Assembly (NCBI RefSeq): GCF_013315695.1
Contig: NZ_CP054353.1
Strand: one strand, 5' to 3'
DNA from: Escherichia coli
Lineage (GTDB): Bacteria > Pseudomonadota > Gammaproteobacteria > Enterobacterales > Enterobacteriaceae
Length of the DNA: 64,000 nucleotides
This document shows, in pieces, positions 17,600 through 55,609 of this stretch; the first letter of the stretch is position 1, and each line of letters starts with the position of its first letter. A program made the position numbers and the translations under genes. The notes under the pieces are model-generated. The model was not told the origin of the DNA and did no database searches. It worked only from the letters and a program-made list of their open reading frames with translations.

Positions 17600-17772
17600 G
17601 CTCAGTGCGTATTTGCAGCGCGACGTTATCAAAGGTGATCATCGTCGATTTACAAAAAATACACTTTGCCCCTAAAGGATTTCGCTCCGTCACATCGAAT
17701 GCCGATGTGCGGTACTGTGAACCATGACAACATGGACAGCGGAAATGGAGATGTTGAGTAATAACGGCAACC

Positions 17773-17985
17773 TTAGAGCGTAACAACGTTCGCTGCCGCG
17801 GGACCACGTTGCCCCTGCTCAATAGAAAATTCAACTTTCTGATTTTCGTTCAGCGTGCGGAATTCATTGCTCTGGATGGCGGTGAAATGGACGAAAACGT
17901 CTTTGCTGCCATCATCAGGAGTGATAAAGCCAAAACCTTTATCTGCGTTAAACCATTTTACTAAACCAGTCATTTTATTAGACAT
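17773..17985 (-). CDS. cspG: Cold-shock protein CspG
   Basis: 70-aa [26 protein letters not shown]... with cold-shock domain RNP motifs. Confidence 0.93.
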
Positions 17986-18270
17986 ATTTTACTTCCTTCA
18001 TTTTGGGCCTTTCGGCAAACAGGGCTTTAATACAGAAACTACTTAGTGTTCAGGAGAGAGACTCAAAAGAAGGGGATAATGCCTGATAATGAGAACTGCT
18101 TTAGTAAACTACTTTGTATGCTGTCTGTCTTTCAAACCGACGCAGCTATTAACGCATGATAATTGAGATTAAGCAAATTTTATTTTAGCCGTCCGGCGGT
18201 CTTAAATATCGCTGGCTTTATTTTATTAACCCCGTATAGTGCAGCGCAGTATTTTCAGTAAGGAATTTGT

Positions 18271-28685: not shown

Positions 28686-28773
28686 GGAAGTGTGGCCGAG
28701 CGGTTGAAGGCACCGGTCTTGAAAACCGGCGACCCGAAAGGGTTCCAGAGTTCGAATCTCTGCGCTTCCGCCA
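28686..28773 (+). tRNA. serT: tRNA-Ser (UGA anticodon)
   Basis: 88-nt sequence GGAAGTGTGGCCGAGCGGTTGAAGG...TTCGAATCTCTGCGCTTCCGCCA with long variable arm and encoded CCA. Confidence 0.95.
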
Positions 28774-39459: not shown

Positions 39460-39481
39460 ACTCACAGGGGCTGGATTGATT

Positions 39482-39991
39482 ATGTACACTTCAGGCTATG
39501 CACATCGTTCTTCGTCGTTCTCATCCGCAGCAAGTAAAATTGCGCGTGTCTCTACGGAAAACACTACAGCCGGGCTTATCAGTGAAGTTGTCTATCGCGA
39601 AGATCAGCCCATGATGACGCAACTTCTACTGTTGCCATTGTTACAGCAACTCGGTCAGCAATCGCGCTGGCAACTCTGGTTAACACCGCAACAAAAACTG
39701 AGTCGCGAATGGGTTCAGGCATCTGGGCTACCCTTAACGAAAGTAATGCAGATTAACCAGCTCTCCCCCTGCCACACCGTGGAGTCAATGGTTCGCGCTT
39801 TACGCACGGGCAATTACAGCGTGGTGATCGGTTGGTTGGCAGATGATTTGACTGAAGAAGAGCATGCTGAACTTGTTGATGCGGCAAATGAAGGTAACGC
39901 TATGGGGTTTATTATGCGTCCGGTAAGTGCATCCTCTCACGCCACGAGACAACTTTCCGGGCTAAAAATTCACTCTAATTTGTATCATTAA
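39482..39991 (+). CDS. sulA: SOS cell-division inhibitor
   Basis: 169-aa product [32 protein letters not shown]... Confidence 0.95.
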
Positions 39992-40214
39992 GTAAATTTA
40001 GGATTAATCCTGGAACTTTTTTTGTCGCCCAGCCAATGCTTTCAGTCGTGACTAATTTTCCTTGCGGAGGCTTGTGTGAAGCGGTTTCCGCGATTTTCTT
40101 CTGTAAATTGTCGCTGACAAAAAAGATTAAACGTACCTTATACAAGACTTTTTTTTCATATGCCTGACGGAGTTCACACTTGTAAGTTTTCAACTACGTT
40201 GTAGACTTTACATC

Positions 40215-40347
40215 GCCAGGGGTGCTCGGCATAAGCCGAAGATATCGGTAGAGTTAATATTGAGCAGATCCCCCGGTGAAGGATTTAACCGTGTTATCTC
40301 GTTGGAGATATTCATGGCGTATTTTGGATGATAACGAGGCGCAAAAA
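40215..40347 (+). promoter_or_regulatory. ompA 5' untranslated leader (about 133 nt), known Hfq/MicA target
   Basis: Sequence from gccaggggtgctcggcataagccgaagatatcgg to the ATG matches the remembered ompA leader. Confidence 0.75.
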
Positions 40348-41400
40348 ATGAAAAAGACAGCTATCGCGATTGCAGTGGCACTGGCTGGTTTCGCTACCGT
40401 AGCGCAGGCCGCTCCGAAAGATAACACCTGGTACACTGGTGCTAAACTGGGCTGGTCCCAGTACCATGACACTGGTTTTATTCCTAACAATGGTCCGACC
40501 CACGAAAACCAACTGGGTGCAGGTGCTTTTGGTGGTTACCAGGTTAACCCGTATGTTGGCTTTGAAATGGGTTACGACTGGTTAGGTCGTATGCCGTACA
40601 AAGGCGACAACATCAACGGCGCATACAAAGCTCAGGGCGTTCAGCTGACCGCTAAACTGGGTTACCCAATCACTGACGATCTGGACATCTACACTCGTCT
40701 GGGTGGTATGGTATGGCGTGCAGACACCAAGGCTAACGTACCTGGTGGCGCATCTTTTAAAGACCACGACACCGGCGTTTCTCCGGTTTTCGCTGGCGGT
40801 GTTGAGTACGCGATCACTCCTGAAATCGCTACCCGTCTGGAATACCAGTGGACCAACAACATCGGTGACGCACACACCATCGGTACTCGTCCGGACAACG
40901 GCATGCTGAGCCTGGGTGTTTCCTACCGTTTCGGTCAGGGCGAAGCAGCTCCAGTAGTTGCTCCGGCTCCAGCTCCGGCACCGGAAGTACAGACCAAGCA
41001 CTTCACTCTGAAGTCTGACGTTCTGTTCACCTTCAACAAAGCAACCCTGAAACCGGAAGGTCAGGCTGCTCTGGATCAGCTGTACAGCCAGCTGAGCAAC
41101 CTGGATCCGAAAGACGGTTCCGTAGTTGTTCTGGGTTACACTGACCGCATCGGTTCTGACGCTTACAACCAGGGTCTGTCCGAGCGCCGTGCTCAGTCCG
41201 TTGTTGATTACCTGATCTCTAAAGGTATCCCGGCAGACAAAATCTCCGCACGTGGTATGGGCGAATCCAACCCGGTTACTGGCAACACCTGTGACAACGT
41301 GAAACAGCGTGCTGCACTGATCGACTGCCTGGCTCCGGATCGTCGCGTAGAGATCGAAGTTAAAGGCATCAAAGACGTTGTAACTCAGCCGCAGGCTTAA
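40348..41400 (+). CDS. ompA: Outer membrane protein A, 350 aa, non-K-12 loop allele
   Basis: Signal peptide [21 protein letters not shown], beta-barrel, APAPAPAP hinge and C-terminal OmpA domain; loop segments GDNING and [14 protein letters not shown] differ from K-12 as remembered. Confidence 0.97.
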
Positions 41401-41413
41401 GTTCTCGTCTGGT

Positions 41414-41443
41414 AAAAAACCCCGCAGCTGCGGGGTTTTTTTT
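41414..41443. terminator. Bidirectional rho-independent terminator between ompA and matP
   Basis: aaaaaaccccgcagctgcggggtttttttt, a perfect GC-rich hairpin flanked by A- and T-runs. Confidence 0.85.
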
Positions 41444-41475
41444 CGCCTTTAGTAAATTGAAGTGACTTTTGACAG

Positions 41476-41928
41476 TTATTCCTTACCCAGCAATGCCTGC
41501 AGATCCTGCTTCAGAGAAGACATTTTATTCGCGTATTTCTCTTTGTTTTCCGCATCTTCAATCAGCTGAACAATCGTTTCAGAAAGCGTTTTACCGCGAC
41601 GCTGCGCAAGACCAGCCAGACGTTGCCAGACAATAAATTCCAGATCGATCGATTTTTTGCGCGTATGCTGGTGTTCCGCATTAAAATGGCGCTTCCGTCT
41701 GGCCCGAATGGTCTGCTTCATGCGATTGACCAGTTCCGGATTCATATGCTTGTCAATCCAGCCATTTACCAGCACGGGTTCATTTTCCAGCGAGAGCAAC
41801 ACATCGACGGCTTCCTGGGCGGCACTGGCTTCTATGTAACGGGTGATTAACTCCCCTTCGCGATACTTCTTCACCAGATACTTCCATTTCCAACCGCTTT
41901 CAAGATTTTCAAGTTGTTGATATTTCAT
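41476..41928 (-). CDS. matP: Ter macrodomain organiser MatP
   Basis: 150-aa [29 protein letters not shown]... Confidence 0.93.
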
Positions 41929-54488: not shown

Positions 54489-55499
54489 TTAGATATGGGT
54501 AACGATTTCTTTAATCAGCGGCGGACCTTTAAAAATAAAACCAGAATAAATTTGCACCAGTGAGGCCCCCGCAGCAATCTTTTCACGCGCAGCGATAACC
54601 GAGTCAATGCCGCCAACACCGATGATCGGTAAGCGACCGTTTAATTCCTGTGACAAGCGGCGAATAATTTCTGTGCTTTTTAACTGAAGCGGACGACCAC
54701 TTAAGCCACCGGTTTGATCACAATTTTTCATTCCCTGAACCAGAGAACGATCGAGCGTGGTATTGGTTGCAATAACGCCATCAATATTATGGCGAACTAA
54801 ACTATCGGCAACCTGGATCAATTCTTCTTCAGAAAGATCCGGCGCGATCTTCACTGCGATCGGCACATATTTATGGTGCATCGCTTGCAAATCATTTTGC
54901 TTATTTTTAATCGCGGTTAAGAGATCATCCAGCGCTTCACCATATTGCAGTGTGCGTAATCCTGGGGTATTTGGCGATGAAATATTGATGGCGATATATC
55001 CCGCATAGGCATAGATTTTTTCCATACAAATCAGATAGTCATCTTTACCCTGCTCCACCGGCGTATCTTTATTTTTGCCGATGTTAATACCCAGAACGCC
55101 GTCATAATGGGCTTTTTTTACGTTCTCTACGAGGTTATCAACGCCAAGATTATTAAAGCCCATACGGTTGATCAAACCTTCGGCATCTACCAGACGAAAG
55201 AGACGCGGCTTGTCATTACCTGGCTGTGGACGTGGCGTGACGGTACCGATCTCGATAGCTCCAAAACCCATCGCGCCTAACGCGTCAATGCACTCCCCGT
55301 CTTTATCAAGACCGGCTGCCAGACCAAGCGGATTTTTAAACGTCAGGCCCATGCAGTTAACAGGTTTCGCAGGCACTTTCTGCCGCACCAGTGCTTCAAA
55401 CGGCGTTCCGGTAATACGGCGTAATTGCTGAAAAGTAAACTCATGAGCGCGCTCTGGATCGAGCTGGAAAAGGGCTTTACGAACGAAGGGGTAGTACAT
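54489..55499 (-). CDS. pyrD: Dihydroorotate dehydrogenase (quinone)
   Basis: 336-aa product [21 protein letters not shown]... Confidence 0.97.
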
Positions 55500-55609
55500 G
55501 AACTCTCCTGGATTCCCGGTGTGCAAACCGGGGGCGTATTATGTGCGAGTTCGGACCAAAAGGGAATTGACCTGTGGCAAAAAAAGCGCAAACGTTTTCC
55601 GAGCCTGTT

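Follow-up and report, generated by a model that had tools for sequence, protein, structure and literature searches.

The chromosomal ompA of an Escherichia coli strain encodes the known long isoform of OmpA

We examined the ompA gene in a 64,000-nucleotide stretch of Escherichia coli DNA (assembly GCF_013315695.1, contig NZ_CP054353.1), referred to throughout as the window. The gene is an intact reading frame with sulA on one side and matP on the other, ycbZ lying beyond matP (Table 1). This order, sulA-ompA-matP-ycbZ, is the K-12 order seen from the opposite strand, and it agrees as well with the annotation of E. coli MSB1_4I, in which identical DNA is labelled 'ompA: porin OmpA' (WP_000750418.1). 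The product matched the NCBIfam equivalog NF008071 ('porin OmpA') along residues 1-350 with 674.3 bits against a cutoff of 277, and Pfam searches found both OmpA_membrane (PF01389; residues 23-199, 266.7 bits) and OmpA (PF00691; residues 226-321, 84.2 bits), that is, the N-terminal eight-stranded barrel and the C-terminal peptidoglycan-binding domain. The protein is a standard two-domain OmpA, in which a proline-rich linker joins an outer-membrane barrel of eight strands, bearing four surface loops, to a periplasmic domain that binds peptidoglycan. We are nearly certain that this is the chromosomal ompA at its usual locus and that, of the two major isoforms of E. coli OmpA, both described long ago, it carries the 'long' one.

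The 5' untranslated region of ompA has a role in mRNA stability and in sRNA binding. Its length, which we take from K-12 ompA to be 133 nt, places it immediately before the start codon in a stretch free of differences from K-12; over the 248 nt 5' of the ATG, a single base differs (window position 40133, ~215 nt before the start). Downstream of the stop codon, RNA folding revealed an intrinsic terminator hairpin followed by a T run (-21.1 kcal/mol, z = -4.0), which differs from the K-12 terminator by one base in the hairpin loop, by the loss of 1 base from the A run ahead of the stem and by an additional C after the T run. This hairpin was not picked up by a simple terminator scan of the window, a simple promoter scan of the window found no ompA promoter, and an Rfam scan of the whole window at gathering thresholds gave no family matches at ompA or its 5' untranslated region. 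With expression signals so like those of K-12, OmpA would be expected at its normal high abundance.

The whole window matches the chromosome of E. coli MSB1_4I (NZ_LR898874.1, isolated in Australia from a human rectal swab), where by coordinate mapping it lies on the reverse strand at about 1991391-2055390. Over a 22-kb stretch the two are 100% identical, the top score; the next-nearest flanks (99.3%) include those of IAI39 and CE10, both of phylogroup F. Both chromosomes also have in common a strain-specific IS1 junction. This IS1 element, of 768 bp, has terminal inverted repeats GGTAATGACTCCAACTTATTGAT / ATCAGTAAGTTGGCAGCATCACC and insA/insB reading frames, and it interrupts elfD, the fimbrial chaperone gene of the elf/ycb operon; no 9-bp target duplication was seen in its immediate flanks. 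Its exact left junction was recovered as a single 100% piece from one of 5426 complete genomes, that of MSB1_4I. The interruption of elfD has probably left this strain with an inactive ELF fimbrial operon. The Rfam matches elsewhere in the window (Table 1) are all expected for a K-12-like region.

Table 1. Features of the ompA locus and of the remainder of the window (positions count from the first letter of the window).
Feature	Position	Strand	Basis or remark
naRNA4	6958-7036	+	Rfam
cspA-type thermoregulator leader upstream of cspG	17719-18141	-	Rfam
tRNA	28686-28770	+	Rfam; annotated tRNA-Ser in MSB1_4I
sulA	39476-39991	+	ORF list
ompA 5' untranslated region	40215-40347	+	DNA alignment with K-12
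ompA coding sequence, OmpA-long allele, Liao (III, beta)	40348-41400	+	intact ORF, 350 codons + stop
Signal peptide, 21 codons	40348-40410	+	identical to K-12 in protein alignment
Beta-barrel domain, residues 22-196	40411-40935	+	identical to PDB 9FZD chain A
Highly diverged loop 1-3 segment, gene nt 118-441	40465-40788	+	alignment with K-12
Loop 1, codon 46, Pro for K-12 Asn (mature N25P), FINNNG>FIPNNG	40483-40485	+	protein alignment
Loop 2, codons 87-89, DNI for SVE (mature 66-68; S87D, V88N, E89I)	40606-40614	+	protein alignment; matches Liao 2017 Table 3A
Loop 3, codons 129-139, 11 residues replacing SNVYGKN, net +4 aa	40732-40764	+	protein and DNA alignment
Codon 228, Thr for Asn (mature N203T), C-terminal dimerisation region	41029-41031	+	protein alignment
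Intrinsic terminator hairpin, then T run	41411-41447	+	RNA fold
matP	41476-41928	-	ORF list
PyrD leader	55494-55567	-	Rfam
IS1 element in elfD	61629-62396	-	inverted repeats, insA/insB ORFs

We compared the gene and its product with ompA of K-12 strain MG1655 (NC_000913.3, 1019013-1020053; 346 aa) by protein and DNA alignment. The first-pass annotation, made by a model from the sequence alone, had identified the gene as an ompA of 350 codons altered in its surface loops, and had named alignment with K-12 OmpA as the check on the K-12 loop sequences that it gave. The two proteins are not identical and the K-12 sequences given are correct, as are the difference in length and each of the three changes listed: GSVENG to GDNING in loop 2, replacement of KSNVYGKNHD by a longer loop 3, and FNFNK to FTFNK at codon 228. 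That list was incomplete, since it lacked the N25P substitution in loop 1. In loop 3 the changes comprise S129A, Y132P, a four-residue insertion and an N-to-D exchange, the insertion corresponding to 12 nt at about window positions 40746-40757. N203T lies within the proposed dimerisation region. Beyond loops 1-3 and N203T, the full-length alignment contains no amino-acid difference from K-12, be it in the signal peptide, the eight strands, loop 4, the linker or elsewhere in the C-terminal periplasmic domain, which bears out the view that the allele is otherwise K-12-like.

The allele has already been described, and nothing about it is new. A recent study sorted OmpA from ~90,000 E. coli genomes into two clusters, OmpA-short and OmpA-long, raised isoform-specific nanobodies and solved both complexes (PMC12259851; 2025, Commun Biol). 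OmpA-long, crystallised with nanobody Nb39 (PDB 9FZD), is defined by a longer loop 3, and the protein encoded here likewise has an extended loop in place of SNVYGKN. Its barrel (residues 22-196) is identical to 9FZD chain A at 174 of 174 residues, all four loops included; that construct is without linker and C-terminal domain, so that T203 falls outside the comparison. K-12 OmpA (P0A910; PDB 1BXW, 1QJP, 9FZC), encoded at the same locus, is OmpA-short. The 'loop 3b' peptide antigen of a study of maternal anti-OmpA antibodies is the loop 3 found here (PMC13108393, 2026).

The same allele fits an earlier scheme, in which outer-loop patterns were defined from ompA sequences of 78 isolates (Liao 2017; PMC5413513). 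Pattern III of that survey combines P, DNI, a long loop 3 and H, and was found in 14% of isolates, while the C-terminal pattern beta is A175, T203 and G251; strains 6, 117 and 146 appear in the lists of both. We found P25, DNI at 66-68, the long loop at 108-114 and H at the loop-4 site (their Table 3A), together with A175, T203 and G251 (precursor residues 200, 228 and 276; Table 3B), and the protein therefore agrees with (III, beta) at every scored position. The loop-4 site is residue 149 in the numbering of Liao and residue 151 by count of the mature K-12 protein. K-12 itself is (I, alpha), and the pattern III exemplar that was functionally tested in the Liao papers is (III, gamma) rather than (III, beta).

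A still earlier name, ompA2, was given to the long-loop-3 class by Power 2006, who, as cited by Liao, detected it by PCR in 43% of 524 isolates. The ompA2 of bird isolate B194, a Liao pattern II allele, has loops 1, 2 and 3 the same as ours. Pattern II, however, has N for H in loop 4 (GDAN) and L for M at position 161, as in O157:H16 and APEC O78, whereas the protein in the window has H (GDAH) and M, as in K-12. Scored by PCR, ompA2 spans patterns II and III (Liao 2022). As it departs from the strict B194 sequence, the allele is ompA2 in the broad, PCR-defined sense only. The exact 350-residue protein is RefSeq WP_000750418.1, 'MULTISPECIES: porin OmpA [Enterobacteriaceae]', which occurs on at least 1000 contigs and, besides MSB1_4I, in the unrelated Danish swine isolate CFSAN018748. 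The 90% protein cluster also contains a rare length variant of OmpA-short, an E. coli protein of 349 aa and otherwise of K-12 type, in whose loop 2 a stretch is duplicated in tandem (GSVESVENG).

With P, DNI and the long loop 3 in loops 1-3 and a K-12-like loop 4 (H), the protein would present a surface epitope different from that of K-12. Ligands of loops 1-3, such as Gp38-type phage adhesins, some colicins, antibodies, nanobodies and possibly host proteins, would be expected to bind differently, while the structural functions of OmpA would be unchanged. The first-pass annotation rightly described the loops as phage receptors: T-even-type phages use the four loops as their receptor surface, and residues 25, 70, 110 and 154 are the classical sites of resistance to K3 and Ox2 (PMC12032242). 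Residue 25 and neighbours of residues 70 and 110 are changed here, which predicts resistance to phages adapted to K-12 loops 2 and 3; the unchanged loop 4 suggests that loop-4-dependent ligands should act as they do with K-12. The annotation's further prediction, of altered susceptibility to OmpA-dependent phages, has already been published for this allele class. In the Gp38 study, natural OmpA variants of ECOR strains expressed in MG1655 delta-ompA permitted or blocked phages with type-2 Gp38, and type-1 phages infected all OmpA variants. Likewise, Power 2006, as cited by Liao, is quoted for lower sensitivity of ompA2 isolates to phage lysis. The strain is predicted to remain sensitive to broad-range OmpA phages.

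Recognition by nanobodies may be expected to follow the isoform. Nb01 and Nb39 touch all four loops and discriminate absolutely between short and long OmpA (PMC12259851), and as the crystallised antigen has the same barrel, recognition by Nb39 and not by Nb01 would be expected, provided that O-antigen does not shield the protein in this strain. Loop differences need not yield every expected phenotype, since (I, alpha) and (II, alpha) alleles were statistically indistinguishable in four cell-surface properties (Liao 2022). For the strain itself, we infer both the long epitope and the phage response from the allele. The study of the two isoforms (PMC12259851) reports no loop 3 matches in other taxa, whereas we found this loop 3 unchanged in the type strain of Escherichia albertii and in Citrobacter sedlakii and C. 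amalonaticus, so that cross-reaction of Nb39 with the three species is possible.

To estimate how common the long class is, we used a 101-nt probe across loop 3, counting matches over at least 80% of the query. The class was present in 2133 of 5426 complete E. coli genomes (39%), in agreement with 41% in the survey of Liao 2017 (PMC5413513) and with the PCR frequency that Liao cites from Power 2006. A few plasmids also carry ompA-like pieces, five matches to ompA lying on plasmids; one of these, the 4668-bp NZ_CP097216.1, encodes an 'outer membrane beta-barrel protein' with 90.7% identity over gene nt 199-554. Among named strains, (III, beta) was found in the window and in CFSAN018748, (III, delta) in IAI39 and ST131, (III, gamma) in Nissle 1917, (II, alpha) in O157:H16 Res13, PEC1009, APEC O78 E19025 and CEA224S, and (I, alpha) in K-12 and O26:H11. 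ECCNB12-2 likewise has a long loop 3 (SNVPGGASTKD), but its allele belongs to none of the named patterns. Published surveys place pattern III in phylogroups A and B2. The first-pass annotation took the loops to mark the strain as a distinct lineage; with long loops in the unrelated Nissle, ST131, IAI39 and O157:H16 and in 39% of complete genomes, they define no lineage.

At the nucleotide level the exact ompA allele is far rarer, occurring in 5 of 5426 complete genomes, and those five also match 22 kb of flank at ~100%. What makes it rare is a small number of synonymous positions in the 3' half of the gene rather than the loops, since IAI39 shares the loop segment nucleotide for nucleotide, and Nissle and O157:H16 depart from it at 2 nt. 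Within that 3' half, the window agrees with IAI39, Nissle and ST131 against CFSAN018748 at gene nt 852, 873 and 894, and with CFSAN018748 against IAI39 at gene nt 795, 827, 840 and 1020. This region (gene nt 795-1020, window positions 41142-41367) is a small intragenic mosaic, consistent with short-tract recombination between C-terminal haplotypes.

Divergence from K-12 is concentrated in the part of the gene that encodes loops 1-3. Within gene nt 118-441, 30 of 312 aligned sites differ (9.6%), in addition to the 12-nt indel, whereas the figure for the rest of the gene, nt 442-1053 included, is 0.7-1.3%. Much of this is silent. The segment contains 14 purely synonymous codon differences, and pS is 0.24 there against 0.04-0.05 elsewhere and 0 in the first 39 codons, so that synonymous divergence is raised about five-fold; pN/pS is 0.22. 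We considered recent positive selection on the loops and rejected it on the strength of these values, which likewise speak against the first-pass proposal that the loops are under diversifying selection.

We then compared the gene with ompA of other species, collected from members of the 90% protein cluster and from a DNA-pattern scan of species-representative genomes. Loops 2 (DNI) and 3 are identical to those of the window in the E. albertii type strain, C. sedlakii and C. amalonaticus, at a nucleotide divergence of 3-6%, and the loops are thus no fresh product of diversifying selection. Loop 1 differs, with D in E. albertii, N in Citrobacter and P in the window, and loop 4 has N in Citrobacter. 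Near-identical loops 2 and 3 occur in Salmonella enterica subsp. arizonae (loop 3 SNTPGGASYKD) and Silvania confinis. The P of loop 1 recurs in the subsp. arizonae genome and in three of the four proteins of the cluster that carry the NCBI label Salmonella enterica. The K-12 combination of SVE with SNVYGKN, by comparison, was present in none of the 22 species loci tabulated.

Distances between whole segments follow the same pattern. From E. albertii, the window differs by 3.1% without an indel in gene nt 118-441 and by 3.0-4.1% in nt 442-1053, whereas K-12 differs by 8.7% plus the indel in the former and by 3.0-3.4% in the latter. Measured from the long E. coli allele over nt 118-441, K-12 is more distant (9.6% plus the indel) than Salmonella arizonae (6.5%). 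Among the 120 species loci listed, the window segment aligns free of gaps, with identities of 98.5% and 95.7% for the representatives of two other Escherichia species, 97.2% for E. albertii, 94.4% for Citrobacter and 93.5% for Salmonella arizonae. For the short segment of K-12, the best match among these 120 Enterobacterales loci reached 88.5% in a gapped alignment, or 91.8% where the alignment covered just 282 nt; none of the loci listed bears the name of E. fergusonii, E. marmotae or S. enterica subsp. enterica, and this negative result for a donor is provisional. Lying so much closer to E. albertii than to K-12, the long allele makes K-12 appear the divergent form. We propose, as the simplest reading of these alignments and one about as likely as not, that the long allele is the conserved, vertically inherited OmpA of Escherichia, Salmonella and Citrobacter (amalonaticus-sedlakii), and that the short loop segment of K-12 is a deeply divergent haplotype.

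Two other origins for the loops deserve weighing. The long segment could have reached E. coli through recombination with a different genus (Salmonella or Citrobacter, for instance), leaving K-12 with the native form; the loops are indeed identical or near-identical to those of C. sedlakii, C. amalonaticus and Salmonella. We regard this as very unlikely, because the segment aligns without gaps and its identity steps down from 98.5 to 93.5% across relatives, as vertical descent predicts, and because it lies just as far from E. albertii as the remainder of the gene does. It is the K-12 segment that is the outlier in that comparison, with no closer relative among the 120 loci listed.

The other possibility is that the loop differences are specific to a lineage, arose by diversifying selection and mark the strain as distinct. 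Such a view could draw on the rarity of the exact nucleotide allele with its matching flank, and on the confinement of all barrel amino-acid differences to the loops. Yet that rarity comes from the 3' synonymous sites, the identical protein is found in a swine isolate and on at least 1000 contigs, loops 2 and 3 recur in E. albertii and two Citrobacter species, and pN/pS in the segment is low; carriage by Nissle, ST131, IAI39 and O157:H16 further argues against monophyly of the long allele. This explanation is largely refuted, and we consider it extremely unlikely. An artefact of sequencing or assembly, for instance a mis-assembled loop 3 insertion, is excluded: the frame is intact, the identical sequence occurs in five independent complete genomes, and the protein has been crystallised.

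If the long allele is indeed the conserved form, the K-12 haplotype could be either an ancient polymorphism under balancing selection from phages or immunity, or an introgression from an unsampled donor. We did not see this polarity stated in the literature on OmpA that we consulted. The allele itself is a polymorphism of textbook standing, already named, crystallised, surveyed in populations and studied with phages and nanobodies. In practical terms, it predicts staining of the strain by the OmpA-long nanobody, presence of the 'loop 3b' peptide used in anti-OmpA serology (PMC13108393), and resistance to phages with adhesins that depend on loops 2 and 3 of the K-12 type. More broadly, nearly all structural and phage-receptor studies of this protein take K-12 OmpA as their reference, and this form appears to be atypical when set against the related species sampled here.
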